DNA of 64,000 nucleotides, from assembly GCA_964610875.1 (NCBI GenBank), contig CAZSWP010000009.1, positions 1-64,000 of the forward strand, read 5' to 3'. The position numbers were made by a program, and so were the translations under genes. Source of the DNA: an uncultured archaeon. Lineage in GTDB: Archaea > Asgardarchaeota > Thorarchaeia > Thorarchaeales > Thorarchaeaceae. The notes beneath the pieces are model-generated. The model did not search any database. It was not told the origin of the DNA and saw only the letters and a program-made list of their open reading frames with translations. Positions 15,424 to 34,513 of this stretch are shown here, piece after piece (positions within the stretch are counted from its first letter, which is position 1; the number at the start of each line of letters is the position of its first letter).

Positions 15424-15647
15424 ACGTATATCTTGAATTCTATCCTTCTAATTCATACTCTTCCTCTGTATTAACTCGTAGGGTCTTACAATGCTTTGAA
15501 AGGAGAAACATGCCTCTCCTAACCCTTAAGTGATGCATTGTGCTATGTAGAAGGTTAACTCAGGGAAGGTTTGTGAAATGAAAAAGAAGAAGGGTTTCGT
15601 ACAGCTCCCAGAATTCCAGACAGACCTAGACATCAGTGTATAGGCAC

Positions 15648-15654
15648 TTATATA
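15648..15654 (+). promoter_or_regulatory. TATA box for the structured RNA, copy 1
   Basis: TTATATA lies 20 nt upstream of the first stem, in the same position as in copies 2 and 3. Confidence 0.6.
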
Positions 15655-15674
15655 CTCCTGACAAGAACAACTTG

Positions 15675-15782
15675 GTGAGGGTGTATTGACACACGAACGT
15701 GCTCTCACAAAGCCATTCCCAGTACCGCTCCTGGGAGGACAATGCTTTGGTGTCCAGAATTGTCCAGCTTACAATGAACGGT
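15675..15782 (+). ncRNA. structured ncRNA, copy 1
   Basis: Stems GTGAGGGT/GCTCTCAC, AAAGC/GCTTT, TCCCAG/CTGGGA and GGACAAT/ATTGTCC; 3' end TACAATGAACGGT. Confidence 0.7.
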
Positions 15783-18374
15783 ATCAATCTTGCACTCTCA
15801 CTGATTGGACCGATTGCTATGATTATTCTCCTGACAATGCCAATTGGTCCATTGGCAGGAGGGCTTGGAATCTTACAACCCATTGGTGGAATTTTTGATG
15901 TTGGCATCGGATTGAATGAAGCTCCACAAGAAACCATACAAATTGAAGGTCTGGAGAACGAAGTGACAATTCTCATAGATCAGTATGGTGTTCCTCATAT
16001 CTATGCTGATTCAGCAGCAGATGCATACTATGGTCTTGGCTATATGCACGCAAAGGACAGACTCTTCCAGATGGTGATGCAAAAATATCTTGCTGCAGGA
16101 AGGGTCAGCGAACTTGTGGGTGGTTATGCCAATAGTTCTGACAAGATATATCGCACTATTGGCCTTGAGAGGACTGCTCGTAAGACTCTGAACTGGTTCC
16201 TTGAGAATTCTGATACAAATCCAGATGTCGCATTTGCGCTTGAGCTAATGGATGCACAAGTGAAAGGTATTAACACCTTCATTGAGAGAATGACCTCTGC
16301 AGATACACCGATAGAATTCCGATTGCTAGGGATAGCTCCCGAGCCATGGAGCAAGATCGACATGTTCCTTGGTGCGTCCTTCATCACTTGGAGTCTAACA
16401 GGTGACTTTGATGATTTGGTACGCTTATGGTTGCGACAGAATATTCAGAACGACACCATGTATAACGAACTCTACCCTGATCTAATGCCCTATCAAAAAT
16501 ACGTGGTTCAAGAACAGACCAACTTGAGTCTAACTGATTATCCTGACGCTCCTGGTGGTTATCCTATGGAGTTTCCTTTTGAATCTCAGAGTGTCATTGA
16601 TGATATTGCTGTAATCGAACTGGAGAAGCTTGAGGAAATACTGGGCTATCTCCTTCCCATTGTTGATCCTTATGGACTGAAAGATAGTTTTGGAAGCAAT
16701 AACTGGGCAGTTTCTGGAAATCGTAGCAATACGGGCAACCCCATGCTTTGTAACGATGCCCACATGCCGATTGTTGCACCGAACTTGGTCTATGAAGCAC
16801 ACCTATCAGTCCTGAATTTGATGAATGTGATGGGCGTGACTCTTCCAGGAATGCCATCTGTGGAAACTGGTTTCAATGATTACATTGCTTGGGGCTTCAC
16901 GAATGGTGGGCTAGATGTTCTGGATATCTTTGCAGAGCAACTCAACCCATCAAATTCGAGTGAATACTATTACAATGGGGAATACCGTGCCTTTGAGATA
17001 ATAGATGAAACAATCCATACCAGAGAAGGTATTGATATCCCCTTCGAGGTGAAAGTTTCAGTTCACGGACCACTCATTGACAGTGTGGTCAGTAGAGATG
17101 ATAGTGGTCTTCCATATCTGGCAATGAACTGGACAGGAAATAGTGTCAGTCACTTGATAATTGCAGCTACAAAACTGAACAAGGCACAAAACATCGATGA
17201 CTATTTTGATGCTATCTCCTGGTGGGATAATCCAGTCTTCAACTTTGCATATGCTGATGCTGTGGGTAACATTGCAATGACTGTGTGTGGTCGCATTCCT
17301 ATCCGTAGTGGCTATAGTGGCATGTTCCCAGTGACAGCACTAAATGATTCTGTAGGCATGGTAGGCAATGTGCCCTATGCCCATCTTCCTAGAGAAGTTA
17401 ATCCTTCCAAGGGTTATGTGTCCTCAGCAAATCAACGGTCAATTGATCCCAATAAATACGGATATCCACTGGTTGGACCCTATGTTGACGGGTATCGTGG
17501 AAGAAGAATCAATGAACTTCTTGCTGCCGATGATGACATCACAACAGAAGACTTGATGCGATTCCAAGCAGATGCAATCGAGATTCGAGCGCGTAGTATC
17601 ATCCCTGAGGTGATTTCTGCATGGGAGAATCTGGGTGGTACCAATACAACTGTTCAGATGGTAATTGATTGGTTTGAAGAATGGGACTATGAGATGGACA
17701 CTGTACTTGAAGCACCTACTGTCTGGATGCATCTCTATGATGCCATTAGATATGAAACATTTGATGAGTTGCAGTTCTTAGAGGATGCAATTGAAGATTC
17801 GTCTAGCAAACAGGTTGCACTCCCGTCGAATCCCTATCCACGTGCTCCAATTCTCGAGCAACTAATACTTGAGAACACCTCTGTCTATTTCGATGATACG
17901 AGAACTGATGAGATATTAGAAACACGAAATCACATTCTGGTTAGGTCGATGCATTTGGCAATCGACAAGATGCATGCATTATATGGTTCCAATACAACCA
18001 ACTGGAAATATGGTATTCATCATACCATCAATGTCGAGCACATTGCAGGTCTGAAAACTATTGAAGGTGGTGCTATACGCGGACAACACACACTCTTTCC
18101 ATCATATGGATGGGAAATGCGTTCTGGACCGGTTCTACGTCATATCATTGATCTAGGGAATCCCCTCAACTCGAGGAGTGTCATACCTGGAGGACAGAGT
18201 GGCAATCCATTCAGTGAACACTTTGATGATCTGTTTCAGCTCTGGTTCTCATTTGACAGGGACAAAGGACACTATCTCTACCAAGAGATTTACACCTATT
18301 CCACACCTGAAGCATTCTTGGCTGCAAACACGGATGGGACACTGATTGAGAGAAGACTCACTCTAATTCCATAA
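15774..18374 (+). CDS. penicillin acylase family Ntn-hydrolase, membrane-anchored or secreted
   Basis: DQYGVPHIYA, GYMHAKDRLFQM, catalytic GSNNWAV, NDAH and PGGQSG. The current ATG lies inside the inserted element. Confidence 0.92.
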   Translation: MNGINLALSLIGPIAMIILLTMPIGPLAGGLGILQPIGGIFDVGIGLNEAPQETIQIEGLENEVTILIDQYGVPHIYADSAADAYYGLGYMHAKDRLFQMVMQKYLAAGRVSELVGGYANSSDKIYRTIGLERTARKTLNWFLENSDTNPDVAFALELMDAQVKGINTFIERMTSADTPIEFRLLGIAPEPWSKIDMFLGASFITWSLTGDFDDLVRLWLRQNIQNDTMYNELYPDLMPYQKYVVQEQTNLSLTDYPDAPGGYPMEFPFESQSVIDDIAVIELEKLEEILGYLLPIVDPYGLKDSFGSNNWAVSGNRSNTGNPMLCNDAHMPIVAPNLVYEAHLSVLNLMNVMGVTLPGMPSVETGFNDYIAWGFTNGGLDVLDIFAEQLNPSNSSEYYYNGEYRAFEIIDETIHTREGIDIPFEVKVSVHGPLIDSVVSRDDSGLPYLAMNWTGNSVSHLIIAATKLNKAQNIDDYFDAISWWDNPVFNFAYADAVGNIAMTVCGRIPIRSGYSGMFPVTALNDSVGMVGNVPYAHLPREVNPSKGYVSSANQRSIDPNKYGYPLVGPYVDGYRGRRINELLAADDDITTEDLMRFQADAIEIRARSIIPEVISAWENLGGTNTTVQMVIDWFEEWDYEMDTVLEAPTVWMHLYDAIRYETFDELQFLEDAIEDSSSKQVALPSNPYPRAPILEQLILENTSVYFDDTRTDEILETRNHILVRSMHLAIDKMHALYGSNTTNWKYGIHHTINVEHIAGLKTIEGGAIRGQHTLFPSYGWEMRSGPVLRHIIDLGNPLNSRSVIPGGQSGNPFSEHFDDLFQLWFSFDRDKGHYLYQEIYTYSTPEAFLAANTDGTLIERRLTLIP

Positions 18375-18395
18375 CCAATAGGAGGAAAAATAAAA

Positions 18396-18803
18396 ATGAA
18401 TAAGATAGATAATACATTTCCCAAACTCGGAGTTTTACCAACACTTGTAGTCACCATCATTCTAGCTGTAGTCTTACAGTTGAGTGGAATTTGAATCATG
18501 ATGCTAGGAGTTGGAATAGCTAGTTCCCTATTCTTACGTAACCATCTTCAGAGTTTCATTGTAGGTTTTGTAGGAGTGTTCTTTGGATGGCTACTTCTGT
18601 TCGTGGTTCTCATATTCAGTGCACAGGCATTAGTGATAGCAGACTTCTTCATAGGCCTCTTAGGTTTGAGTGGACTAGGTCCTCTGGTTATCATTATCAG
18701 CTGTCTTATCGGTGGAGTTCTTGGTGGTTTTGGAGGTGTATTAGGAAGGTCTCTTGTAGAGATGATTGATGAGTTTCTTCAGTCGTCAGAAGAAATGGCT
18801 TAA
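18396..18803 (+). pseudogene. Gly-rich membrane protein with an in-frame TGA
   Basis: GGAGG SD, then ATG 18396 MNKIDNTF..LQLSGI*IMMLG. TGA at 18492-18494 is in frame with 18498..18803. Confidence 0.65.
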
Positions 18804-18878
18804 TGGTTATCATTTTAGAGGTGATTCTAACATTCGTTGGGAAGAGTTAATCTTCTTTCAAAACAATGTTTGAGTGAG

Positions 18879-19163
18879 ATGGGCGAATTAAAAGAACGCC
18901 CTCGAAAAGGGGAGTATGGGTTTACTACTGGCAACTGTCATTGGTGTGGAAAAGATGATACTTGACATTGAGGTATGTACTGCTCGAGGAGATGTACTGC
19001 AGCTGGATCATTTTACCAATATGTGATTATGACTTCTTTCATATTGATTATTGCTGTTGTGTTGCTTCTCGAGGCGAACATCATCGGATTTGCATTTTTC
19101 TCGCTACTCAGTCTATTACTATTCTACTATGTTTTGGTAGGATTTGGAATGAGAAGCGCATGA
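18879..19163 (+). pseudogene. Zn-finger (CxxC..YCSxxC) membrane protein with two in-frame TGA
   Basis: MGELKERP..CHWCGKDDT*H*GMYCSRRC followed by two TM helices. TGA at 18963 and 18969. Confidence 0.6.
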
Positions 19164-19389
19164 ATTAGTATAGGTGGAAATTCAACTGGAAGATTACTTA
19201 GATTCTATTCATCTTCTTCTATACCAGATTACACCAAGTGTGACAATAGTTGTGGTGACAAGTAAAACAAGAACTATTACGTATGGACAAATTCCAATGC
19301 ATGAAGGGTGATTACTGCTGAAGATTAATGGAATGAGCATGATCTGAACACATGTACCAATTCAAGTCAGCATGATTCCAAAACTAGAA

Positions 19390-19496
19390 TGGTGGACCGA
19401 GCGTGATTTGAACACGCGACCTCTTCCATGCCAAGGAAGCGATCTAGTTCCCTGCAACTTCTTAGTGAAGTCACAACCGAGCTGATCTATCGGCCC
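19390..19496 (-). tRNA. tRNA-Ala(GGC) with D-loop intron, CCA encoded
   Basis: GGGCCGA/TCGGTCC acceptor stem with G3:U70; CTTCC-TT-GGC-AT-GGAAG; ~28-nt hairpin insertion in the D-loop. Confidence 0.9.
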
Positions 19497-19666
19497 ATTG
19501 CGTGGGTTCGAGTGCACAATCGAACGGTTAAAAGAATTGTGGAGTGCAACTACTTGGAAGTACAAATTACTTTCCAAAGACAAAGAGAAGAGAATATGCC
19601 ATTTTTGCCTTCAAACAAGTACTCTAGTATTGTGCAACTTTGAATATTCTCAACTGCAATCCGGAA

Positions 19667-21052
19667 CTATGCACCACGCTCTTTTTGGTGTCTTGGGTCT
19701 GTTGCTTCAATTATGACCGATACCGAGTCTTGATTGAATCCTTTGAAACCTTGCCCTCTCTGTATAATTTCAAGATGATTCCCAATTGCTCCATTCTCTA
19801 CGAAATTATCGAACTGCTCCTTTGAGATGAGCTCTTGTTTGAGCGCTCTTTTGGCTCTATCGAGCCGTACTTTTCTTCTTTCTACTTCGGTGAACGCCTG
19901 TTTCAGGAATTCAAAGTCTGAGAATGGTCTAAGTGTATCCACGCATCGATTCTTCAATTCGGGTCGCACTCGTTCGAAATTCACTCTTACTGCAAGGTGA
20001 TGGAGTCCAGCTTCAAGAATACTCTCTCCGTGCAGTGTAGTCCAGAGCCCAACTGTTCCCAGTTTATCAGATGTATCAAGTTTCTTATGAGCAAAGTCCA
20101 TCTCCTGTTCTTCATCTGTGATATCAATGTCTGCGAACACAATAAAATCACAGATTGGTTGCTCAAGCACTTGTGCCCCCCACCCCGCTTTCTTTCCAGC
20201 AAAGAATCTCTCTCGTGAATGAAAGCCAAGTGTTTCTAAAATTTCAATTAGTACATGGAACACATCACGTGAGGAGCGATATGTGTGGTGGTCATGATTA
20301 CCCCAACCAAGTCCTAATCGGTCTTGTCTTAGTTTTTGGGTTGCTCCAGCTAGACAATGATTTTGCCAATAGATACGCTCCGCATGGAAAAATGCATCAG
20401 TTACTCTTTCCTTAGAGAGGTCTTTCAAATGGGATTTTACTAGAGAAAAGGTGTCTTTCATCCCTTCTTCTGTGGAATTATTGATTCGCGGGCGTACTAA
20501 GAAATTTTCAAGGGCTGATTGGTAATAATCGATATCGCTAGATGAATCTTTAGCAACAAATCCATTGTATCCTCGTCTTTCAACTGCTTTCAAAACATAA
20601 TCATCATGAGAGGAAATAGGACTCATTCTGTAAGGCGAGAACATTTCCCCCTGAATATCACCTTGTCCTTCTACCATCTGAATGAAATTGGTGAGATTTT
20701 CCACCTTGAGGGCGACTTCTCTACTGGAATCGTCAGTCATTATGATAGGAAACAGGGTCGTACCATTGGCAATGTAGACATCCTGAGACTCTTCTGTTTC
20801 CCTACCATCGCTCGGTACGTACCCACTGTTTTCTAGTTCATTTCTGACGTCCTCGGTGTCTGGAATTACGATATGGTCAATCCAGTCAAAGAATCTGGTA
20901 GAGGTTAATTCCATCATCTTTTGTGCTAAGCAGCTTCCAAAAGGATGTTTACTCATAAACCTATTAATCTCCCTTTCAAGAACACGCTCAGCTTGTGGAT
21001 AAAGTGTCCAATTATAAGAATCAGAAGTAGATACTTTAGTTGGAGAAGAAAT
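19667..21052 (-). CDS. uncharacterised VOC/glyoxalase-like putative metalloenzyme
   Basis: WIDH, WGNHDHHTYRSS, HGESILEAGLHHLA and HLE motifs. The frame stays open upstream of ATG 20956 to ATT 21052, which follows GAGGAGG. Confidence 0.65.
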   Translation of the reverse strand: MSSPTKVSTSDSYNWTLYPQAERVLEREINRFMSKHPFGSCLAQKMMELTSTRFFDWIDHIVIPDTEDVRNELENSGYVPSDGRETEESQDVYIANGTTLFPIIMTDDSSREVALKVENLTNFIQMVEGQGDIQGEMFSPYRMSPISSHDDYVLKAVERRGYNGFVAKDSSSDIDYYQSALENFLVRPRINNSTEEGMKDTFSLVKSHLKDLSKERVTDAFFHAERIYWQNHCLAGATQKLRQDRLGLGWGNHDHHTYRSSRDVFHVLIEILETLGFHSRERFFAGKKAGWGAQVLEQPICDFIVFADIDITDEEQEMDFAHKKLDTSDKLGTVGLWTTLHGESILEAGLHHLAVRVNFERVRPELKNRCVDTLRPFSDFEFLKQAFTEVERRKVRLDRAKRALKQELISKEQFDNFVENGAIGNHLEIIQRGQGFKGFNQDSVSVIIEATDPRHQKERGA

Positions 21053-21210
21053 CTTCTTTGCCTCCTCATCCCCTACATTATACTGATAATGTTTTGTTGT
21101 TTTCGTTAGGTCACTTTCTTAATCACAAAATAATCATCTTGGAAAAGAAAAACGCCTCAGAAGTTTTAATGAACTGTCTTCTTCTGATGCATAAAAGGAA
21201 GTGGAATTAG

Positions 21211-21317
21211 ACCGTTCATTGTAAATTGTACAAACTTGGACACCAGAGTGATGTACCTCCATAAACGGTAATGGATCGTACTCTGTGAGGTTATTCTATG
21301 TGTCTGGTCAACCTCAC
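21211..21317 (-). ncRNA. structured ncRNA, copy 3 (most diverged)
   Basis: The reverse complement has GTGAGGTT/AACCTCAC, AGAGT/ACTCT, TCCAT/ATGGA, GTACA/TGTAC, GGTGTCC and ends TACAATGAACGGT. TTTGTATA box at 21339-21346. Confidence 0.7.
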
Positions 21318-21381
21318 AATACTATGATTATCTTTTGCTATACAAAGACCTACAGATGTACATTCTTTATTCAATCATTCA

Positions 21382-21540
21382 CTAAAGAAATGTCCAACTT
21401 TGACCAGATCTCTTGTAACTGTTGGCAACCCCTGACCAACCAATACGCAAAGTATCTTCTATCAATGGAGTATTTCTGGAGTTCCTTCGAGTCTTTCCAT
21501 TCTTGCGTTTACGTCCGCTAGAATTATTGTGTCTGCCCAT
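21382..21540 (-). CDS. small basic hypothetical peptide (52 aa)
   Basis: GGTGA SD, then MGRHNNSSGRKRKNGKTRRNSR. Below the ORF-track cutoff. Confidence 0.3.
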   Translation of the reverse strand: MGRHNNSSGRKRKNGKTRRNSRNTPLIEDTLRIGWSGVANSYKRSGQSWTFL

Positions 21541-21884
21541 CCTTTCACCTTCTTTCCCACAGGTCGAATGTATATTTTGCTCCTTTCACGTGAGCAGCAA
21601 TTCTTGTAAGAGGAAGTATGGGCTGACCCCTCAACCAAACTGTAAAGTCATGGTTGGATTTCATTTCATTACGAAGTAATGTATCAATCATGTAACGGCA
21701 TTCGCCTTGCCATAAAAATTGGTGATTACAGAAAATAAAACTTGTTCTACATAATTTAGTTCATTCTAATGTAATCAAAGGGCAAACTGAAAAGGCGTTG
21801 TTCAAAATGAAATTTTATTCGGATGGAATATATTCTCTTTTTCAGAATATATATTGTTCACAAAGTTGAGATGCTCTCAGAAAT

Positions 21885-22073
21885 TCAGCCTCGGACACGT
21901 GTCCCATGGACGTTCTTATGTGCCCATTTGTACTGCCGTAACTTGCTTGAACTCCCAAAACCACAGGCCGCACATCTCTTATGTCTTACATGATATGATC
22001 TACGTCCGCAGCGTCTGCATCTAATGTGGTGTGGATTGTTTTTCTTACCTTTTGCTGGAGTACCCTTACCCAT
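21885..22073 (-). CDS. rpl37e: 50S ribosomal protein L37e
   Basis: [26 protein letters not shown]. Confidence 0.97.
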
Positions 22074-22079
22074 TTTCTA

Positions 22080-22355
22080 CTACTCCTTCTTACGTACGGT
22101 CTTTGGAGGCGGACTTACAATTACAACATTGTCGCCTCGTACAATGACGGTGTGGATGACTTCCACGTATTCCTCATCGGTTTCAGGATCTGTGGTAATC
22201 TCATCAGCATCCTCAAGGATGAGATTCAGATGCTGGTCATATCCTCGCAGTTTGCCCTTTATTTTCCTTCGTCCCTTTAGCTCCACAAGAACCTGTGAGC
22301 CAATTGACTTTGATAATAGTTCCATAGGCTTCCCTGCGTTCAATAATATCACCAT
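22080..22355 (-). CDS. Sm-like (Lsm) protein SmAP
   Basis: VLVELKG..GKLRGYDQHLNLIL..IVRGDNV; next to rpl37e as usual. Confidence 0.95.
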   Translation of the reverse strand: MVILLNAGKPMELLSKSIGSQVLVELKGRRKIKGKLRGYDQHLNLILEDADEITTDPETDEEYVEVIHTVIVRGDNVVIVSPPPKTVRKKE

Positions 22356-22493
22356 ATAGAAACTCGTCAGAGTGATATGCTCTTGACGGTTGCGCTAGTC
22401 TTCTACCTCATCTTTTAAACATGACGATGTATTCTATCAATTCCGACCATTAATCCGGAGCTTTCAAAAGGCTGGTAACCACTCTATGAATCG

Positions 22494-23000
22494 ATGCCAA
22501 AGATAGAACGAATCAAAAAACGTCATTTCTTGAAGAAACGAGACCAACGAGCCGAGCTTGAACGTATTGAAAAGATTCTCAAGTCTTCCATATCAAAACT
22601 GGATGAAGTTCAGCTGGAAGCAGGAGAACTTGATGATGGAACGAATATTCTTCTTGCTGATGGAGATATTCTTTTCTTTGAAACGGACGGGCAGCTCTTT
22701 CCAAGTCTTCATGCATTACTTAAAGAAATCATTCGCATTCCTACAGTCACCGTAGATATGGGTGCTGTACGTTTCGTAGTAAATGGAGCGGATATCATGC
22801 GGCCTGGGATTACCAAGGTGGATGATGGAATATCTAAAGGTTCTGTAGTAGCTATTGTTGATGAAACACACGGAAAACCCTTAGCTGTAGGGATATCCAA
22901 AATGAGTTCAGAAGAACTGAAAGAAGCATCAAAAGGCAAGGTCATACAATCGGTTCATCATGTGAATGATGATCTATGGAATTTTAGCAAGACCCAATGA
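22494..23000 (+). CDS. PUA-domain RNA-binding protein (Tma20/MCT-1-like)
   Basis: VTVDMGAVRFVVNGADIMRPGI..PLAVG..HHVNDDLW. Confidence 0.92.
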   Translation: MPKIERIKKRHFLKKRDQRAELERIEKILKSSISKLDEVQLEAGELDDGTNILLADGDILFFETDGQLFPSLHALLKEIIRIPTVTVDMGAVRFVVNGADIMRPGITKVDDGISKGSVVAIVDETHGKPLAVGISKMSSEELKEASKGKVIQSVHHVNDDLWNFSKTQ

Positions 23001-23002
23001 TA

Positions 23003-25696: not shown

Positions 25697-25803
25697 TCAC
25701 TACAACCGAGATGCGGTTCCGTAAATCTGTTTCGTGAAGTGGATAATACTCGCTCTTTTCTTCATATTTCTATTCAATGATGTTGAGAAATAGGTGACAA
25801 GTA

Positions 25804-26193
25804 ATGCGATTCTTATTTGGACGAAAGCGCAATCATAATGATGAAGAATCAGAGGACTCCCATTCCGGTCTAGGTGTCTTTTCACCAGCAATCGAAGATA
25901 CACAACCAGATCCTCTTCATGAATGCAAACGCCTTGGCGAGCTTGATCGCGTCTTCATTAGGTCTAAACGCTTGGATTCACTAGATGATGTACCGTTTAT
26001 TGTGAGCCAGATTAAGGATGGTAATATCGTACTACTTGATATATCTCACCTTAACGATGGACGTGATCAGACTCATCTAGAACTGAAACGCATTGTGGAG
26101 AGAATTCGTGGTGAAACACGTAGCTATCGTGCAGACATAGCATTGGTAAATGATAATTGTATAATAGTAGCTCCATCGTTTGTTAGCTTCTAG
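25804..26193 (+). CDS. sepF: cell division protein SepF
   Basis: LDSLDDV..IKDGNIVLLDI..LKRIVE..DIA..IIVAP. Confidence 0.85.
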   Translation: MRFLFGRKRNHNDEESEDSHSGLGVFSPAIEDTQPDPLHECKRLGELDRVFIRSKRLDSLDDVPFIVSQIKDGNIVLLDISHLNDGRDQTHLELKRIVERIRGETRSYRADIALVNDNCIIVAPSFVSF

Positions 26194-26243
26194 ACTAAAT
26201 TGTGTCCTAGAATGAATCAGGTATGGTTTCCCGTTTGGTATAT

Positions 26244-28157
26244 CTACCTAAGTTTGATTGATTCAGTGACTTGTAGGGCTTTCGTTTCAATATTCAGAGC
26301 TTTATGGATTGTTGATGCAAGATTTAGACACTTACTCGACTCACCATGACAAGTTAGTACACGTTCTGGTGTTGGACTTACCCTCTTAACGAAATTCAAG
26401 ATCTGTTTACGGTCTGAGTGTCCTGAGAAGCCTTCCACGGTTTCTACTTGTAGGTTTATTGGGACAACATTCATGTTACCATCACGATTTCTCATCTGGA
26501 CTTCTTTCCATCCCTTCTGAATACGCCTGCCAAGTGTTCCTTCACCTTGGTATGAAACGAAGATAAGTGTGTTCTTTTCATCTGGTGCTAGTAGTCTGAA
26601 GTATTCAACACTGGGTCCACCTACTAGCATACCTGACGTTGCCATTATAATGCAGGGGTCACCTTCAACAATTTCTTCTCTCTGGTCAGGATTGTCTACT
26701 GGAGTGAAAATCTCATTCAAGAATGGATTAATTCCCTGATGAAAGATCATCTCTCTAATCTTCTTACTCAAGGCTTCAGGATGAGTTGTGTGTATTGCTG
26801 TTGCTTGAGCAATCATGCCTTCAATGTATACTGGAATCTTTGGAATACGATTCTTACTCACAAGATCTTCAATTACAAGCATAATCTCTTGAGCTCGACC
26901 TACTGCAAGTACTGGAATCAATACCTTACCACCACGCTCGACTGTCTTTCTAATTAATGATGCAAATTTCTTCTCCACCTCTTGTCTAGGTGGCATCTTA
27001 TCCGTTGGGTGTCCATATGTGGACTCCACAATGAGGGTTTCTAACCGTGGAAATGTGAAGGTGGCTGGTTCAAGGAGTCGCGTTCTTCCAAATTTGAAGT
27101 CGCCAGTATAAGCAAGATTATACTGCCCATCACCAATATGGAGGTGAATTATTGCTGAACCAAGAATATGTCCAGCATTATGAAGAGTAAGACGGACATC
27201 TGGTGAAATATCGGTGACCTCTCCATATTCTAGGGGTATTGTGTGAAGAATAGTATCTTTTACATCTCGATCACGGTATGGCCGTAGTTTCCCTTCGCGT
27301 TCTGCAACATCAAGATAGTCAAGTTGCAATAGTGTTGACAGGTTGAGAGTTGGTGCAGTCATATAGACTGGGCCACGATAGCCATACTTGAAGAGGAAGG
27401 GAACCATTCCACAATGGTCTAAATGTGCATGTGAGATAATGACCGCGTCCAGTTCTTCGATGTTGAACTCTGGCATATCCAATCGTGGAAATGCTCTGTT
27501 TGGCGTTCCCACATTCACACCACAATCTATCAAGATATTACTCTCTGGAGTCTGCAGAAACATACTCTGTCTCCCGACTTCCCTGAATCCTCCTAGTGCT
27601 GTCAATCGAATCCATGTGTTCTCCACAAGGGGTTGACGGTGAATTCTTCTCCCAATTTCACGAAATGTCTTATTGCGTCTTTGGGCTTCAGATTGAATGA
27701 TGTAACGAATCTGTTTGATTAGTTTACTCTCAATTGGTGGAGTTCTCTGTACACTTGGACGCCAGAATGTCTGGCGAGTGATCTCCCTGAGTGTAGAACC
27801 ACTTCTACCAATAACTAATCCTGGTTTCTGTGCTTCAATTATCACCTCTCCTCTGGAATCATCAAAATCTATCGAGGTGATTTCAGCATCTACTGGGACC
27901 AACTCCTTTACAGCTTTTTCAGCTTCTTCATGAGTCAGTCTAACTTCTGGAGCTGAACGTACGACGATCCTTTTGCGCATCTTTCTAGCGAGAGCTTTAA
28001 TCTTGTCTCCGTCATCTAATAGAATCTTCGGAGCTTTGGAGTAAATAGCAATCTCAGGTCCTTCATATTCAACTGAACTAATTGCAGCTGAACGAGGTAA
28101 GGCCTTCATCACTGACTCTCTGATATCAACGTATTCTTTAATATTGTCAGAAGCCAT
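26244..28157 (-). CDS. fttA: beta-CASP ribonuclease aCPSF1 (termination factor FttA)
   Basis: KH domains, LGGFREVGR, SHAHLDH, AGHILG and FSGHSD. Confidence 0.96.
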   Translation of the reverse strand: MASDNIKEYVDIRESVMKALPRSAAISSVEYEGPEIAIYSKAPKILLDDGDKIKALARKMRKRIVVRSAPEVRLTHEEAEKAVKELVPVDAEITSIDFDDSRGEVIIEAQKPGLVIGRSGSTLREITRQTFWRPSVQRTPPIESKLIKQIRYIIQSEAQRRNKTFREIGRRIHRQPLVENTWIRLTALGGFREVGRQSMFLQTPESNILIDCGVNVGTPNRAFPRLDMPEFNIEELDAVIISHAHLDHCGMVPFLFKYGYRGPVYMTAPTLNLSTLLQLDYLDVAEREGKLRPYRDRDVKDTILHTIPLEYGEVTDISPDVRLTLHNAGHILGSAIIHLHIGDGQYNLAYTGDFKFGRTRLLEPATFTFPRLETLIVESTYGHPTDKMPPRQEVEKKFASLIRKTVERGGKVLIPVLAVGRAQEIMLVIEDLVSKNRIPKIPVYIEGMIAQATAIHTTHPEALSKKIREMIFHQGINPFLNEIFTPVDNPDQREEIVEGDPCIIMATSGMLVGGPSVEYFRLLAPDEKNTLIFVSYQGEGTLGRRIQKGWKEVQMRNRDGNMNVVPINLQVETVEGFSGHSDRKQILNFVKRVSPTPERVLTCHGESSKCLNLASTIHKALNIETKALQVTESIKLR

Positions 28158-28278
28158 CTAATGTCACTTCTCTATTATGGGTTAATTACGTCCCTTATAG
28201 GCCAGATTATCTGGTCCCTTGAAACAATAAATGACTCATGACAGACTAGAGAATCCTAGTGTGTTTAAAATAGAATCA

Positions 28279-28914
28279 CTATTGTTTCCAAATTTTCATA
28301 ATTGTGTCTTTGGACACTTCCTCATAGCCATCCTTATCGATAACGCTACAGAGTATTGAATTGCCTGAAGCAGCATCACGTTCGATAGCTGCGGCAACCG
28401 CACGAATCGCAAGTTCCATGGCTTTCTTTTTAGGAAGGTCGTCCTTGTACTCAGCTTCAAGTACACCAAAAGCTACTGGTGAACCAGAACCTGATGACGT
28501 ATACTTGTCTGGTAGCACTGACCCAATAAAGTCGGTATAATAGACCTGTGGGCCGTCATCATCAAATCCTCCGACGATACATCCTAGCATATAGACGCCT
28601 CGAGCCTGGAACATTATATTGCTTAACAATCGAGTAAGCGCTTTCACACGAATGGTTCGGCCTCTTTGAATCTCAAACAGTTTAGCTTCAGCCTTTAGCA
28701 GATCCATGATATTCTGAGCATCTGCTACAGAACCTGCAATTGTAGCTCCAATCTGATCAGTGATTTTGTAGATCTTCTTTGCTGTTTTATTTGCAATGAG
28801 AAAACCCATTGTTGCTCTCTGATCACTTGCTAGCACTACGCAGTCTTTACCGATTAGACCAACAGTTGTTGTACCAGTCTTGAGCTCCGCCGGAGGCTGA
28901 GTTGAATATTCCAT
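28279..28914 (-). CDS. psmB: proteasome beta subunit
   Basis: KTG-TTTVG, GSVADAQ and GSGS. Confidence 0.97.
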   Translation of the reverse strand: MEYSTQPPAELKTGTTTVGLIGKDCVVLASDQRATMGFLIANKTAKKIYKITDQIGATIAGSVADAQNIMDLLKAEAKLFEIQRGRTIRVKALTRLLSNIMFQARGVYMLGCIVGGFDDDGPQVYYTDFIGSVLPDKYTSSGSGSPVAFGVLEAEYKDDLPKKKAMELAIRAVAAAIERDAASGNSILCSVIDKDGYEEVSKDTIMKIWKQ

Positions 28915-29082
28915 TTCGAGTAAACTCCTTGTTACAACGAGTAAAATCTCGGAGAACTAGTGACAGATAGCGATTTCCAAATAATGCATTAAAAGGTTTC
29001 TTATGGGACACTTTCTCGGAAATTTCTACTCTGATGACAATAGAAGGGCATCTCTGGAGAGATATGCCCTGCCAACTATAGA

Positions 29083-29925
29083 CTATGTTGTATTCTTCTT
29101 CGGTTCTTCAGGTCGTTCGTACGTGACAACAAATTTGACCTCTTTTGCATCATCAATGACTTTCAGTGCATCGCCAGCTATGCCTATCTCTGCATATTGG
29201 ATGTTTTCGATGTAGCGCGTTTCTTTTGGCAGTTCGATCGTGACCACTTTCGACTTTATTGTCACTGAGTATTTATCTGCAGGAAGTCCTGGTACTCTTC
29301 TCTTTACTACAGCCTTAATTTTCTCAACAGGATCTGAAATGACCTCTCTAATGGTAACATCAAAGACTAGTGTCTTTCCTGCTAATGGATTGTTGAAATC
29401 TATTACAACTGTTCGACCAAGAACTTGTGTAATAACTCCTCGTTCTCTTCCGAAAGTTACCTCTGCTCCTTTGACCGGTCTGTCGCCTTGTTTCATCAGT
29501 TTTGTCTTTGCGACACGTTTGATTTTCTTCGGGTCCTTTTCTCCTGCACCTTTATCTGGAGGAATGTCTATGGTCTTTGATTCTCCTGCTTTCATTCCAA
29601 CTAGTTCTTCTTCAATTGCAGGAAGTAACCAATTCCAACCCACAGCAACTAATGTGGGTTCGTAACGGTCATCCTCTTTGTATAGGCCCTCTTTCTTCGC
29701 GATGTCCTCAAGAGTCAGGTCAAATATTTTATCATCTTCCTTTGTTTTTCCAATATAATCAACATAGACCAAACTACCTTCACTGACAACAGTCTCTTTC
29801 TCTGCAGCTTTCTTTTCAGTAGTCTTCTTGGTTGTTTTTTTGGTACTCTTCTTAGTTGTGGTCTTTTTCTCTGCAGTTTTTTTGGTAGTTTTCTTCTTGG
29901 TCTTCTTATCTTTCTCTTCAGGCAT
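29083..29925 (-). CDS. slyD: long-type FKBP peptidyl-prolyl isomerase with Lys/Thr-rich N-tail
   Basis: VYVDYIG, IFDLT and IDFNNPLAGKTLVFDV. Confidence 0.9.
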   Translation of the reverse strand: MPEEKDKKTKKKTTKKTAEKKTTTKKSTKKTTKKTTEKKAAEKETVVSEGSLVYVDYIGKTKEDDKIFDLTLEDIAKKEGLYKEDDRYEPTLVAVGWNWLLPAIEEELVGMKAGESKTIDIPPDKGAGEKDPKKIKRVAKTKLMKQGDRPVKGAEVTFGRERGVITQVLGRTVVIDFNNPLAGKTLVFDVTIREVISDPVEKIKAVVKRRVPGLPADKYSVTIKSKVVTIELPKETRYIENIQYAEIGIAGDALKVIDDAKEVKFVVTYERPEEPKKNTT

Positions 29926-30008
29926 TTATAGTTCCCCCGGGGAAGATATGACTGTATTTCAGCCGTCCAGCTCGGTGAAGTTATAAAACGGTTTCCTTAG
30001 GGCGTCTT

Positions 30009-30587
30009 TCACCGATTTGCTAAGTAAATCATGAGGGTTTCAAAGAAAATAGTGACCTTTGCAATTATTCTTTGGTTGAATCCGTTTTTCTTGAAGACCT
30101 CTTCAACACGTTCAGGCTTTCCGAGAGATGAAACCAGAATGTATATTCTTCCATTTTCTACAAGATGTTCTACTGATTGTTCAATAAAACGTTCAGCTAA
30201 TTCGGTTCCTTGTTCTCCACCAATTAGGGCATGATCCAAATTTGTGACATCTTCATCTGCTGGAAGATAAGGAGGATTAAAAATTACTACAGAAAATTTT
30301 GCTTTTGGCGATATGGCTCCAAGTAGATCGCCCTGAAACACTTCGGAAGCCGTTTCTGAGCTATGATTTGCTAGATTTCTCTTTGTATTGATTACTGCAT
30401 TCAATGAGATGTCCACTGCAACTATTCTCTTTACTCTATCAGCAAGTGCTACAGTTAGATAACCCGATCCACTTCCCATCTCAAGGACTGAGTCATATTT
30501 TGCGACCTCGATATTTTCTAATAATAACCTTGAATCTTCTGAAGGTGGGTATACACCATTATCGACACCGAATTCTTTGTTGCCCAT
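30009..30587 (-). CDS. HemK2/PrmC-related methyltransferase
   Basis: VYPPSEDS, LEMGSGSG and FNPPYLP. Confidence 0.93.
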   Translation of the reverse strand: MGNKEFGVDNGVYPPSEDSRLLLENIEVAKYDSVLEMGSGSGYLTVALADRVKRIVAVDISLNAVINTKRNLANHSSETASEVFQGDLLGAISPKAKFSVVIFNPPYLPADEDVTNLDHALIGGEQGTELAERFIEQSVEHLVENGRIYILVSSLGKPERVEEVFKKNGFNQRIIAKVTIFFETLMIYLANR

Positions 30588-30589
30588 AG

Positions 30590-31447
30590 TTATTCCCTTC
30601 TTGGATGAGAAATAATATCATCCTCTATCGCAGAAGTAAGTGAGTCTGCAATACAAACTAGAGTTTCTATTGGAAGATTTCTAAGTCGTTCATCTAGAAT
30701 ATCCTCTGAGATATAGCTTACAATCTGATTGTAGTGCTTCAATAGTTTGATACGTTTGAGCCAGAATTTCATAGCTTTTCGCAATTTCTTGTTGGGATAT
30801 GAATAGATTCCATGAATTAACCAAAAAAAGACATCAGAATCTTTTGCTTTTGGTCCTCCTTCTCTGTGACAGACACGTAGTACCGAGGAATCCACTGCTG
30901 GTTCTGGATAAAAATCCGTTGCTGGCACATCAAAGAGCCATTCAGCGGAACTAAGATAATTGAAATCAATAGTAAGTCTCGAGTAGTCTGAGGAACCTGG
31001 TTCCGCTAATAATCGATTCGCAAACTCCTTTTGATACATAAGTATTGCATATTCAAAACTGAATTCCTTTAGAAGACGAAACGTGATGTTGGAAGCAACT
31101 GAATAAGGCAAGTTTGCTATAATCTTGTTAAAACTTGGCAAGCCGTGCGTCAATATATTTCCCTGAATGACCTCTATTCGGTCATTATCGCCAAACATAT
31201 CCAAGAGTGCTTGTACTAGACCAGGATCAATCTCTACGACAATCACTTTACCTGCTTCGCGTGCCAACCATTTTGTTAGAGCTCCAAACCCGCCTCCTAT
31301 TTCTAGAACAGTATCATCAGAAGATAGTTTTCCTGATTGTACAATGTTTTTTGCCACTTGGGCATTTATGAGGAAACTTTGTCCTGATTTCTTCTGTGGT
31401 TGTATGGAATACTTTCGTAGAAGTGCTTGAACCTCTGTGCGAGTCAA
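30590..31447 (-). CDS. rsmA: 16S rRNA adenine dimethyltransferase KsgA/Dim1
   Basis: GQSFL, LEIGGGFG, ANLPY, MYQKE and PAVDS. Confidence 0.95.
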   Translation of the reverse strand: MTRTEVQALLRKYSIQPQKKSGQSFLINAQVAKNIVQSGKLSSDDTVLEIGGGFGALTKWLAREAGKVIVVEIDPGLVQALLDMFGDNDRIEVIQGNILTHGLPSFNKIIANLPYSVASNITFRLLKEFSFEYAILMYQKEFANRLLAEPGSSDYSRLTIDFNYLSSAEWLFDVPATDFYPEPAVDSSVLRVCHREGGPKAKDSDVFFWLIHGIYSYPNKKLRKAMKFWLKRIKLLKHYNQIVSYISEDILDERLRNLPIETLVCIADSLTSAIEDDIISHPRRE

Positions 31448-31474
31448 AGGAACTCACCTCTTCTTGATGATGTG

Positions 31475-32080
31475 CTATCTTCGAGGTGGACGGTCTCGTT
31501 CATTTTCATCTCGTTTCGGTGCCTTGACGAAGAGCCACCGTTTTACATCTTCTTGCAGCTCATCTATTATTCTGGCAGAGATGACCTTCTTAGGATTTTG
31601 AAGTTTCGTTCTTTCAGCAATATCATCGAAATTTTTGAACGACTTCTTTTTGCGTTCTTCAAGGATTGCCCACATTAGCGTTTGACCAATGCCTGGCAAT
31701 AATTGCAAAGAATGTTGTCTAGTTGTGATTGGTTTGGCTTCATTGAAGAATTGTACAAATCGATGCTCATGCTTTGTGACTATCATTTCGATAACTAGTG
31801 GTAACTCTGCCGCACTCTCAGGAGCTAAATCTTCGTAGAAAATTCTTCTCTTGACATGGTCTATCTTTCCTCGTGCATCACGAGATATTGCCACACGTTC
31901 CTGCGGGTTTAAAGATGCTCCTCTTCGCGGAGCAAGTTCTAGAAGTGTGAATTGTGACTCGCCAATAGCTTGAGCTACGGTTTCACCTCTGGGCCTGCTA
32001 TCGCGGAGATATACTTTTGGAGGAACAACTGCAAGGATGTAAGCGTGTGTTTCAAATGCTCTATTAGATGTATCTTCCAT
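31475..32080 (-). CDS. DUF655 RNA-binding protein
   Basis: AQAIGESQFTLLE and HSLQLLPGIG; conserved rpl21e-rpo4-DUF655-ksgA order. Confidence 0.9.
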   Translation of the reverse strand: MEDTSNRAFETHAYILAVVPPKVYLRDSRPRGETVAQAIGESQFTLLELAPRRGASLNPQERVAISRDARGKIDHVKRRIFYEDLAPESAAELPLVIEMIVTKHEHRFVQFFNEAKPITTRQHSLQLLPGIGQTLMWAILEERKKKSFKNFDDIAERTKLQNPKKVISARIIDELQEDVKRWLFVKAPKRDENERDRPPRR

Positions 32081-32176
32081 TCGTTATCGCCCCTAATTAT
32101 TACAGGCCACATATATAATGAATTCACTTACTTGTGTTAAAAGTCAATCGGGACTAGCAATCCCGTTTTCGTATTT

Positions 32177-32512
32177 CTATGACCGAGCTTTTGTGATTAT
32201 CTCAACAATCTCCTCCAACTGCTCATCCGTAAGCTCGACACTGCGCATATCAAGAACCGATTTTAGTTCTTCTATGGAGGTAGGTGCAATATTCACAATT
32301 TGAACCGCCTGAAAGCGTGTCAAATCATAGCTCTTCATAATTCGTTTCGTAGTCTTTCTAGAAACCGCGGGAGCCATCTTTGCAAAAGAAGATGCGTGTT
32401 CCAAGGTTATAGTCTGTTGGAAGGAGAGCTCGCTCTCTTTTCCGCGCTTACTCAGAATCTTCTTGACTTGAGGTAATGTAACTTCCTCTTCTTTTACAAC
32501 TTCTTTGGGCAT
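32177..32512 (-). CDS. rpo4: RNA polymerase subunit Rpo4 (F)
   Basis: ELSFQQ..AVQIVNIAP..EELKSV; gene order. Confidence 0.9.
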   Translation of the reverse strand: MPKEVVKEEEVTLPQVKKILSKRGKESELSFQQTITLEHASSFAKMAPAVSRKTTKRIMKSYDLTRFQAVQIVNIAPTSIEELKSVLDMRSVELTDEQLEEIVEIITKARS

Positions 32513-32524
32513 CCGCCTTTCCCC

Positions 32525-32821
32525 CTATTCTCTCACCGGTTGAAGATGCTCAGGTCGTATAATAAGAGTCTTTGTGGCTTTACCAACTTGCACATCAACA
32601 ATAATCCCTCTTCCTCTGACACCTTTCACGATACCAGTTAGGCCGTGGTATCTACTGTGTGGCATCCCTTTATGCACACTGGGATTGATAACAATATTGA
32701 CGCGTTGACCCTTCTCATAGTCGATAAGGACCGCACTAAGTGGACTTAATCCTCTTTTCCTGACTCTCTTTGACATCAGGTCACGAGTTCTTGCACGGAA
32801 TCCATGACTCTTTTTGACCAT
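32525..32821 (-). CDS. rpl21e: 50S ribosomal protein L21e
   Basis: SHGFRARTR..HKGMPHSRYHG..RPEHL. Confidence 0.97.
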   Translation of the reverse strand: MVKKSHGFRARTRDLMSKRVRKRGLSPLSAVLIDYEKGQRVNIVINPSVHKGMPHSRYHGLTGIVKGVRGRGIIVDVQVGKATKTLIIRPEHLQPVRE

Positions 32822-32930
32822 AGGGCATCATCTTTTTCATTTGTTGTTCCTGGTATCTAGAAATAGTTAGTACTTCCTGACCAAGACTCAGCAAGACCTC
32901 TTGGGTGTTAACTTAAAGATTATGGTCTGT

Positions 32931-34289
32931 TTATGTCGACTCTATTGCAATCACATTAAGTTCGGTACATTCACAAAAACGGTCTAAAACGGAACTAACT
33001 GATGGCACAGTCCTACCCTCATCGCCAGATATCAATTCTTTTACATATGTCCCTCCCTGAACACTAAATCTGGCAGATAGCATATTGTTTGACTCTCTCT
33101 CTAATGTGACTTCATGGACAATCTTCTCTCGTATCAAATCAGAACGCCTGTGTGAAACTCGTTTTGGAGTTCTCTGTTTTATGGTAACACCGGTCAGCTC
33201 TCTCTCTGCTTTTTTCAACATCTCTTCTGTTACTTCGCCTTCGACCCTGATCTTTGCTTTGTACTCCTTTATGTTTTCAGAGGCTTCCAGCTTTAGTCCC
33301 TGAGCCTCACTTCTTTCCGACATACGGAGTCCAAGAACCTCAATCTTTTCCGAAGCATGATGATTGATGACTTTTCGTAATTCATCTAAATCAGGATGAC
33401 GTATCCTTGGTTCTGACACCTCTAAAACGAATGGTCTTCCCGTTCCTAACATTAGAACATCGATATCCTCTCTTCCTGCCGCATGCACTTTGAAGCGAGT
33501 TCCATTTAGTATTTCGAGCGATGGTGTTCCAATATACTCTGATACCGAATCAGGATATTTACGACCCGTATTATTACATTCTTCGCACCCTTTTCCTCCA
33601 CATGATTTACAGTCCCATCGACTTTGTGGTATTCCCCGTACCAGCTTACGGTATCGCCCGTAGATGAACACTGGATTTATCTGAAGTTTGAAATCATCCT
33701 GAGCCATATCATAGAGGACTACTACATCAGGCTGTTTGAAGTCCACCTCTTGTGGCATCATGGTATCGAGATATTTTCCAATTTCTCGATTAAAATCCGA
33801 CTTGAAAGTCTCTCCATATAACAAGTTGTTATTAGCACGTAGTTCATCCTCTCGTTCTGCCAATTCAGCTATTGGAATAGTGCCTACAAGAAATGTATCG
33901 AATTGGATTTCATCTAATTGTTCCATCACACGTTTAGAAATAGATGGAATTCTTTCAAAGACAGAATGGTTGTTTTGAGAACATAAATAGCACGACTCCT
34001 TTTTCTCATATTCGATATCATATCGCTTGCATAAGCTACCAGCTTGTTCGGATAGCCCATTTGAAGCTAGATTCCTTAGAAGATGCACACCGTTCTCTTT
34101 CAAGCCAGAACGTATTTGCTCGTCAGCAGTCATTACAAGAACGGTTTTCACTGCTTTTCCACGTTCATCATTCGTTGTTTCTGTGCTCAACCATGCAAAC
34201 TGTCTTCCCAGACATTGATCACATAGGACATGGTTATGTAGTAGCTTCTCAGCTTTTTGTAAAACATCTGATTCTACTACCTTTGCCAT
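32931..34289 (-). CDS. pus10: tRNA pseudouridine(54/55) synthase Pus10
   Basis: CDQCLGRQF, GRYRKL, AGREDIDV and GGTYVKELISGD. Confidence 0.95.
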   Translation of the reverse strand: MAKVVESDVLQKAEKLLHNHVLCDQCLGRQFAWLSTETTNDERGKAVKTVLVMTADEQIRSGLKENGVHLLRNLASNGLSEQAGSLCKRYDIEYEKKESCYLCSQNNHSVFERIPSISKRVMEQLDEIQFDTFLVGTIPIAELAEREDELRANNNLLYGETFKSDFNREIGKYLDTMMPQEVDFKQPDVVVLYDMAQDDFKLQINPVFIYGRYRKLVRGIPQSRWDCKSCGGKGCEECNNTGRKYPDSVSEYIGTPSLEILNGTRFKVHAAGREDIDVLMLGTGRPFVLEVSEPRIRHPDLDELRKVINHHASEKIEVLGLRMSERSEAQGLKLEASENIKEYKAKIRVEGEVTEEMLKKAERELTGVTIKQRTPKRVSHRRSDLIREKIVHEVTLERESNNMLSARFSVQGGTYVKELISGDEGRTVPSVSSVLDRFCECTELNVIAIEST

Positions 34290-34325
34290 ATAGACATCCC
34301 CATTTCATTTGTAGTTGTCTTGGGT

Positions 34326-34513
34326 CGCGAACAGATACTAATAATCAGGACAAACCTTGACATTATTGTGTAGGTGCTTATATAGGACCGGTAAGGATAT
34401 TTTAGTGAGGGTGTCTTGACACACGATCTTACCCTCGCAAAGCCAGTCCCAGTACCGTTGTCTGGGAGGACAAAGCTTTGGTGTCCAGATTTGTCCAACT
34501 TACAATGAACGGT
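34326..34513 (+). mobile_element. 188-bp non-autonomous cassette, copy 2
   Basis: Collinear homology to 15596-15782. Preceded by GGGT and ends AACGGT. Intergenic between pus10 and the GGR-like gene. Confidence 0.65.
34405..34513 (+). ncRNA. structured ncRNA, copy 2
   Basis: GTGAGGGT/ACCCTCGC, AAAGC/GCTTT, TCCCAG/CTGGGA, GGACAAA/TTTGTCC and ACCGTT/AACGGT. TTATATA at 34378-34384. Confidence 0.7.

Follow-up and report, generated by a model that had tools for sequence, protein, structure and literature searches.

The 64,000-nucleotide stretch analysed here (the window, C9:1-64000) opens contig CAZSWP010000009.1 of an uncultured Thorarchaeota archaeon and carries three dispersed copies of a compact RNA-like sequence of about 108 nucleotides (nt). 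An earlier note, made from the sequence alone, had read these as stand-alone guide-RNA cassettes depending in trans on a nuclease whose gene lies elsewhere or, failing that, as a new riboswitch or cellular non-coding RNA class. All three copies were recovered at the positions and on the strands given there. The predicted association with TnpB is present, but the copies are not free-standing RNA genes: each is the 3' (right-hand) part of a gene-less element of about 190-220 bp, a whole non-autonomous transposon. Our reading, which we regard as probable, is that these mini-elements are miniature, protein-free derivatives of IS607 transposons in which a guide-RNA scaffold, that of a TnpB encoded elsewhere in the genome, now sits directly behind the element's own promoter. 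The features in the window are as follows, with bit scores from a covariance model, R1, that represents 31 distinct gene-less copies and contains only the nested helices P1-P3.

15592-15782, + strand: copy 1, a complete protein-free IS607-type element of 191 bp, its ends set by comparison of five near-identical copies.
15616-15632, + strand: left-end subterminal direct repeats of copy 1, two CYAGACA motifs 10 bp apart, read directly and presumed to be TnpA sites.
15647-15654, + strand: TATA box of copy 1, at a position homologous to the tnpA promoter of the autonomous element.
15675-15782, + strand: omegaRNA-like scaffold of copy 1, with P1, P2, P3, a GGACAAT/ATTGTCC helix and a putative loop/3'-end pseudoknot; R1 score 111.1 bits.
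15751-15757 and 15761-15767, + strand: right-end TGTCCAG repeats of copy 1, inside the scaffold, whose end reads CGG·T.
34322-34513, + strand: copy 2, a complete 192-bp element with its TATA box at 34377-34384 and its scaffold at 34405-34513; R1 score 117 bits.
21211-21431, - strand: copy 3, a complete 221-bp element with its TATA box at 21347-21339 and its scaffold at 21317-21211; R1 score 104.7 bits.

Several earlier observations were reproduced exactly: the hand count of 13 differences over 109 aligned columns between copies 1 and 2; the common 3' end, at which the last 13 nt are identical in all three copies and unrelated sequence follows; the TATA-like box upstream of each, 24-28 nt before P1; and the absence of tnpA and tnpB from the window, which holds for the whole of its contig. 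Copy 3 belongs to a diverged subfamily. The repeat itself had been real but drawn too short and counted too low, as each of the three elements starts with a GGGT about 83-114 nt upstream of P1, giving units of 191, 192 and 221 bp, and the genome contains 43 complete ones instead of three.

This number comes from a search of the assembly (3.75 Mb in 124 contigs, 40.7% G+C), in which the terminal 12-mer has 53 exact matches. An all-against-all comparison including 3 kb upstream placed one limit of similarity 158-225 bp upstream of the common 3' end and the other no more than about 10 nt (mostly 0-2) away from it. Alignment by subfamily then yielded 43 complete elements of 158-221 bp, falling into at least five subfamilies with 31 distinct RNA sequences, and many further fragments at contig ends, as expected because a multi-copy repeat breaks assemblies. 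The left junction is GGGT in 40 of the 43 elements and the right junction AACGGT, with flanks otherwise unconserved, and neither a target duplication nor terminal inverted repeats appear at the aligned ends of the 43. Inside the ends lie two CYAGACA motifs on the left and two TGTCCAG motifs, their inverse, on the right, each pair spaced by 10 bp. The assignment to IS607-type non-autonomous transposons is supported by the GGGT/CGGT junctions together with the lack of target duplications and of terminal inverted repeats. One right-end subtype, with C for G in the terminal motif, is multi-copy and confined to the contig ends of C35 (both), C39 and C86; its probable source is tnpB-bearing elements in multiple copies, their right ends collapsed together.

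Excision in silico can repair a gene: removing one unit reunites the N-terminal 24 amino acids of an NMO-family protein, encoded before it, with Pfam NMO positions 25-330, encoded after it. That several copies split otherwise intact genes so cleanly is what an intron-like sequence would do, removed from the mRNA and thus harmless inside genes. We consider this explanation very improbable. An open reading frame (ORF) of at least 100 codons spanning the site is restored at 14 of the 43 sites, compared with 83% of random GGGT sites, so that genes contain fewer insertions than chance would give, in keeping with a harmful effect there. Moreover, the elements have no match to group I or group II introns, and their two ends are not complementary in the manner that a bulge-helix-bulge splice site needs.

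Word depth in metagenome contigs is several-fold higher at all three window copies, which indicates many copies, contigs diverge exactly at 15783 and 21211, and one unitig spans exactly 21211-21431. Among the metagenome DNA contigs there is no empty-site allele, none of them skipping an element; the sequence is present in microbial-mat metagenomes. A genomic search with the 16-nt flanks of about 24 elements, meant to reveal possible targets in trans, found no second sites beyond chance matches with one or two mismatches, the single exact match being an element's own flank at a variant junction.

Longer versions with the same ends enclosing tnpA and tnpB, which the earlier note had suggested looking for, do exist. 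A profile of the RNA region matched C18:24659-24729, directly behind a TnpB-like ORF, and a profile of the left end matched C18:16151, 8.6 kb upstream on the same strand. Together they mark an autonomous relative at C18:16148-24729, and a second, diverged one with the same gene order runs from C18:60599 to the contig end. On C18, the left end starts in the same way as that of the mini-elements and shares their two CYAGACA repeats, and in the full element the promoter lies about 20 nt before tnpA. The tnpA product (206 amino acids) scores 175.5 bits with the NCBIfam model NF033518 for IS607 family transposases (cut-off 110) and combines Pfam HTH_17/MerR and Resolvase (serine recombinase) domains. 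At the other end, the right end is homologous: the last codons of tnpB and the 28 nt beyond them contain the P3 hairpin, a helix formed by AGACAA and TTGTCT, and two right-end repeats, and their terminal motif departs from that of the mini-elements in a single base.

The tnpB product has 731 amino acids, a match to Pfam Cas12f1-like_TNB (1.7e-13) and a partial match to NCBIfam guided_TnpB. The RuvC-motif residues D498, E610 and D703 and four zinc-finger cysteines are invariant in ten TnpB homologues, and a PDB sequence search gave a weak match to a TnpB/Cas12-like protein from RuvC-II to RuvC-III. A structural model of low confidence (predicted local distance difference test score 65.5, predicted template modelling score 0.39) retrieved only Cas12f, TnpB and other Cas12 proteins as its top Foldseek hits, of which the identity alone was used and not the template modelling scores. 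The protein is probably an active nuclease, but a divergent and unusually large one.

Between tnpA and tnpB, and divergent from the latter, lies a giant ORF of 1764-1838 codons, present in both C18 elements (L003:920-6436(-) and L005:872-6166(-)) and 1838 codons long in the one at C18:16148-24729. It has no Pfam or NCBIfam match, and an Atlas look-up returned sub-threshold STAND-NTPase/Mrr-like leads. Its N-terminal 400 amino acids adjoin tnpB at 16 of 30 homologous loci in other genomes, which makes it a conserved cargo or partner of the 731-residue TnpB. Serine-recombinase branches of TnpB with unknown cargo genes have been described (Altae-Tran et al.), and the giant ORF may be cargo of that type.

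The genome also encodes a second, unrelated TnpB family, with eight genes on C78, C3, C37, C25, C16 and C12 whose ORFs of 379-625 codons have long C-terminal extensions. A link in cis between this family and the mini-elements was sought and rejected, as none of the eight genes carries a mini-element right end.

The serine-recombinase parentage also bears on a different origin, from an IS110-family element that would have supplied the RNA as its bridge RNA and given rise to the short copies by deletion. At the end of contig C2, the left part of a copy-3-type element does run into an IS110 transposase gene (C2:158416-159104), and C15:76657-77757 holds the remainder of that gene (Pfam DEDD_Tnp_IS110 and Transposase_20) and ends in the 27 nt of copy 3. 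This IS110 element is, however, flanked by copy-3-type sequence only, that is, by one subfamily, and it has its own non-coding region of about 190 nt before the ATG. It interrupts the mini-element between the two right-end repeats of the latter and is therefore a nested insertion. The 43 insertion sites, furthermore, share nothing beyond GGGT, and the same ends are carried by IS607-type tnpA and tnpB. We therefore rejected an IS110 parent and attach almost no credence to it.

The nested insertion occupies C2:158613-159104 (L004) and C15:76657-77757 (L001), with a deleted variant at C61:13139-13561 (L002), and its leader of about 190 nt contains a stretch resembling the interrupted target, which fits bridge-RNA targeting of a repeat.

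The pairings proposed for the RNA greatly exceed what chance would give. In the 31 distinct copies of this genome, 82.9% of the cells in paired columns can pair, against 32-47% when the partners are slid; 14 pairs have changed on both sides (9.6 in shuffles), as have 80 individual cells (27 in shuffles). In 25 sequences from about 20 genomes, the paired fraction is 90.5% against 32-50%, and 19 pairs have changed on both sides compared with 9.5 +/- 1.7 in shuffles, a number reached in none of 500. The covarying pairs across genomes comprise 7 of 9 in P1, 3 of 5 in P2, 3 of 6 in P3 and 5 of 7 in the GGACAA/TTGTCC helix; this alignment was fitted to P1-P3, and hence leans towards them, whereas the pseudoknot helices lie outside the model.

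Of the pairings proposed before, then, P1, P2, P3 and GGACAAT/ATTGTCC covary, but GACAC/GTGTC and the loop TACCG with the terminal CGGT are conserved without real covariation. The latter interaction (loop ACCGUU with 3'-terminal AACGGU) is paired in 88-96% of cells, nearly invariant and marked by one compensatory double change; for GACAC/GTGTC there is conservation only. Because the right-end partners of both coincide with the 10-bp-phased TnpA-type repeats, their conservation may be owed in part to TnpA. Promoter position is a further constant: about 39 of the 43 elements have a TATA-like box 26-28 nt ahead of the P1 reference point, and in most copies of other genera the box is at -23 to -26 from the model start. 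The RNA matches no described Rfam family: at gathering thresholds the whole window gives two tRNAs only, and the copy 1 region searched at E values up to 10 gives a chance match to a small nucleolar RNA only.

The connection between this RNA and TnpB emerges most clearly from related genomes. R1 has matches in 25 of 36 genomes of the same family, all Thorarchaeota metagenome-assembled genomes (MAGs), with 2-61 matches each and representing 12 of 15 further genera (60 relatives were searched), and no match in 24 genomes outside the family; the named records are Candidatus Thorarchaeota or Promethearchaeota MAGs. At the loci fetched from relatives, the units once more lack genes, open with GGGT and carry left-end repeats and, mostly, a TATA-like box. 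Homologues of the 731-residue TnpB occur in 24 of 40 family genomes. A search for related loci with a single TnpB query returned none, compared with 70 loci for a TnpB alignment. In 27-28 of the 30 homologous tnpB loci fetched from related genomes, R1 matches the 3' end of tnpB on the tnpB strand. These matches begin about 80 nt inside the ORF and finish about 25 nt past the stop codon; the tnpB 3' end on C18 scores 38.6 bits. The 3' 70 nt or so are plainly homologous, with P3, the GGAC/GTCC helix, the repeats and the terminus, and the 5' part encodes a conserved C-terminal protein motif and is able to form a P1-like stem. All 21 family genomes with a detected TnpB contain the RNA, as do four more. 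On account of the homology to tnpB-linked right ends and of the shared architecture, the interpretation of the RNA copies as TnpB guide-RNA scaffolds within gene-less IS607 mini-elements is supported.

Several observations weigh against this interpretation. Transcription, a guide read from the flank, binding and cleavage by TnpB, and use in trans are all steps that we infer, and no RNA-seq run contains the locus. The copies within the genome are related by descent, so that the shuffle statistics overstate the support, and the strand evidence from G-U versus A-C counts is weak (62 versus 37 across genomes, 63 versus 79 within this one). In the tnpB-linked RNA, the 5' half coincides with coding sequence and can be aligned to P1 only loosely, and neither P2 nor the GACAC/GTGTC pairing occurs in any of the tnpB-linked copies, both being seen in gene-less copies only. 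The sole complete tnpB of this genome has a right end with C for G in the terminal motif and without P2, and the C18 TnpB therefore may or may not accept the mini-element RNA. Finally, four genomes have RNA copies and no TnpB found with the 731-residue query. One of them, G010, is 98% complete and has 38 R1 matches and no TnpB homologue at E <= 1e-20; its mini-elements may persist without this type of TnpB or may use a divergent nuclease.

These four genomes would be readily understood if the elements were ordinary non-autonomous IS607 mini-transposons, moved by TnpA only, whose RNA-like structure is a decaying relic and whose RNA is unmade or functionless. The ends and the TnpA-type repeats alone suffice to explain mobility, and the right-end motifs that never vary coincide in part with the repeats presumed to bind protein. 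A relic would not, however, be expected to keep the distance from TATA box to P1 across genera, nor does it account for P1 and P2, which form no part of the terminal repeats and are missing from the tnpB-linked ends, yet have compensatory changes in those 7 of 9 and 3 of 5 pairs across genera. We judge a pure relic to be unlikely, though less so than the other alternatives discussed here.

Element structure, ends, copy number, homology to the right end of tnpB elements, RNA covariation and promoter conservation can be read from the genomes themselves, and they suggest how a functional mini-element might work. Deletion of the coding region would have joined the left end, with its TnpA-type repeats and the TATA promoter of tnpA, straight to the scaffold that constitutes the right end. 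TnpA supplied by autonomous elements would move the mini-elements in trans, recombining a GG(T) core into GGG(T) sites. The internal promoter would start an RNA at about P1 that passes through the scaffold into the flank, and so consists of scaffold plus a locus-specific 3' guide. A TnpB made elsewhere would bind this RNA and cut the empty, GGG-flanked site, sparing the occupied site, which reads CGG, and repair from the occupied copy would restore the element. Such a homing and retention cycle has been shown experimentally for IS605 and IS607 TnpB proteins.

Going further, one may speculate that 40 or more promoter-equipped guide RNAs per genome each independently program the TnpB of a few autonomous elements to defend the guide's own insertion site, and that the scaffold has been remodelled, with P1, P2 and GACAC/GTGTC replacing the coding-constrained 5' part, so that it folds autonomously and competes for TnpB. 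We offer this extension tentatively and think it somewhat doubtful; if it is true, Asgard archaea would possess an analogue of a guide array that is scattered through the genome and carried by transposons.

The genes next to the window copies show what insertion does locally. Copy 1 interrupts a penicillin-amidase-family gene just behind its sixth codon, and the ORF downstream matches Pfam Penicil_amidase. The severed original start, an ATG, four Lys codons and GGT, is at 15574-15591 and in frame with the sequence from 15783 onward. The element's terminal ATG AAC GGT is likewise in frame with the remainder of the gene and stands behind the element's promoter, and expression of the gene may continue in the form of a transcript that fuses scaffold and mRNA. 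Copy 2 is in the intergenic region between Pus10 and a geranylgeranyl-reductase-like gene, its left end 32 nt upstream of the Pus10 start codon (34289-34322), and has probably displaced or replaced the Pus10 promoter region. Copy 3 is 255 nt upstream of an ORF of 429 codons on the same strand.

The in-frame ATG that copy 1 gives to the penicillin-amidase gene, and the compact, pseudoknotted fold, are features that a cellular cis-regulatory RNA (a riboswitch or leader with the conserved ATG as the regulated start) or a housekeeping non-coding RNA could share. Selection of the ATG as a gene restart is, however, not supported: it is in frame at 8 of 12 sense insertions within genes, which is not above the base rate of 52% (P = 0.23) given by the frequency with which GGT is a codon at GGGT sites. 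ATC replaces ATG in the tnpB-linked relatives, Rfam contains no match, and the 43 or more copies have unrelated flanks and lie between and inside unrelated genes in both orientations. The riboswitch or cellular RNA alternative raised earlier is thus unsupported, and we give it only a very small chance.

Elsewhere in the window, 19393-19545 (- strand) is likely an intron-bearing tRNA gene. With the tRNA model of Rfam it reaches 28.5, just under the gathering score of 29, and only with a stretch skipped; ARAGORN reports nothing there, and the metagenome word depth is about ten-fold that of the surroundings.

The family described here is an abundant structured RNA that is absent from Rfam, with hundreds of copies in 13 or more Thorarchaeota genera, and it can now be given a concrete origin as the candidate guide scaffold of a divergent IS607 TnpB of about 730 amino acids. 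In the mini-elements, the putative omegaRNA has been separated from the tnpB coding sequence that it otherwise overlaps and placed under its own promoter. The resulting scaffold of about 108 nt, with its rich covariation, should help to work out which RNA features this TnpB clade minimally requires, and should also be of use in engineering. For genome annotation, many genes that look split, and many contig breaks, in Asgard MAGs can be explained as transposon insertions and not as introns or riboswitches. If TnpB does use the RNAs in trans, they would also provide a test of whether RNA-guided homing maintains non-autonomous elements in archaea.

Among characterized systems, the closest counterpart is the right-end RNA (reRNA) of ISXfa1, an IS607 element that inserts into GGG, whose TnpB has GGG as its target-adjacent motif (TAM) and whose right end reads CGG, which spares the intact element from cutting (Yoon et al. 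2023, bioRxiv 10.1101/2023.08.09.552727). TnpA repeats are embedded in a stem of the ISXfa1 reRNA (bioRxiv 10.1101/2023.08.09.552727), and in the reRNAs of ISDra2 and ISXfa1 a pseudoknot between an apical loop and the guide-adjacent nucleotides has been validated, being experimentally required in ISXfa1. The RNA described here has the same IS607 right end, CGG junction and left GGG, several stem-loops, a predicted pseudoknot and presumed TnpA repeats embedded in a stem, and its tnpB-linked homologues likewise overlap the tnpB 3' end. It differs in having a scaffold of about 108 rather than 144 nt, no detectable sequence or Rfam similarity and a partner TnpB of about 730 amino acids; the window copies, moreover, lack tnpB, have their own TATA promoter and reside in an archaeal host. 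The RAGATH-18-derived reRNA of ISFba1 is also the guide RNA of an IS607 TnpB, and its solved structure has three stem-loops and two pseudoknots (Cell Res 2024, PMC11061315). Its scaffold, however, is 187 nt long and its TAM is AGGAG, and the Rfam scan of the window copies gave no RAGATH-18 match. The IS110 bridge RNA resembles ours as a structured non-coding RNA in a transposon end, complementary to the element's own ends, although the mini-elements have no RNA-specified target.

With respect to the way of life of the elements, the nearest parallel is provided by the palindrome-associated transposable elements (PATEs), protein-free IS605-type elements that often encode omegaRNAs needing TnpB in trans (Meers et al. 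2023, PMC10055086), so that the trans-used omegaRNA of a protein-free element is a known concept. The mini-elements are best read as PATE/MITE-like derivatives of IS607. Like PATEs, they are minimal, non-autonomous and multi-copy, have ends in common with an autonomous insertion sequence and carry an omegaRNA, here a predicted one, for a TnpB encoded elsewhere. PATEs belong to IS200/IS605 and are moved as single-stranded DNA by a Y1 transposase, with hairpin ends and TTAC-type targets, whereas the mini-elements have IS607 serine-recombinase ends, a GG core, a dedicated archaeal promoter joined to the scaffold and, on the 5' side, the remodelled P1/P2 domain. What differs from the known systems is therefore the IS607 chemistry, the fused archaeal TATA promoter and the covarying P1/P2 region freed from coding constraint, together with the TnpB partner of about 730 amino acids, the Asgard host and the high copy number across a whole family.

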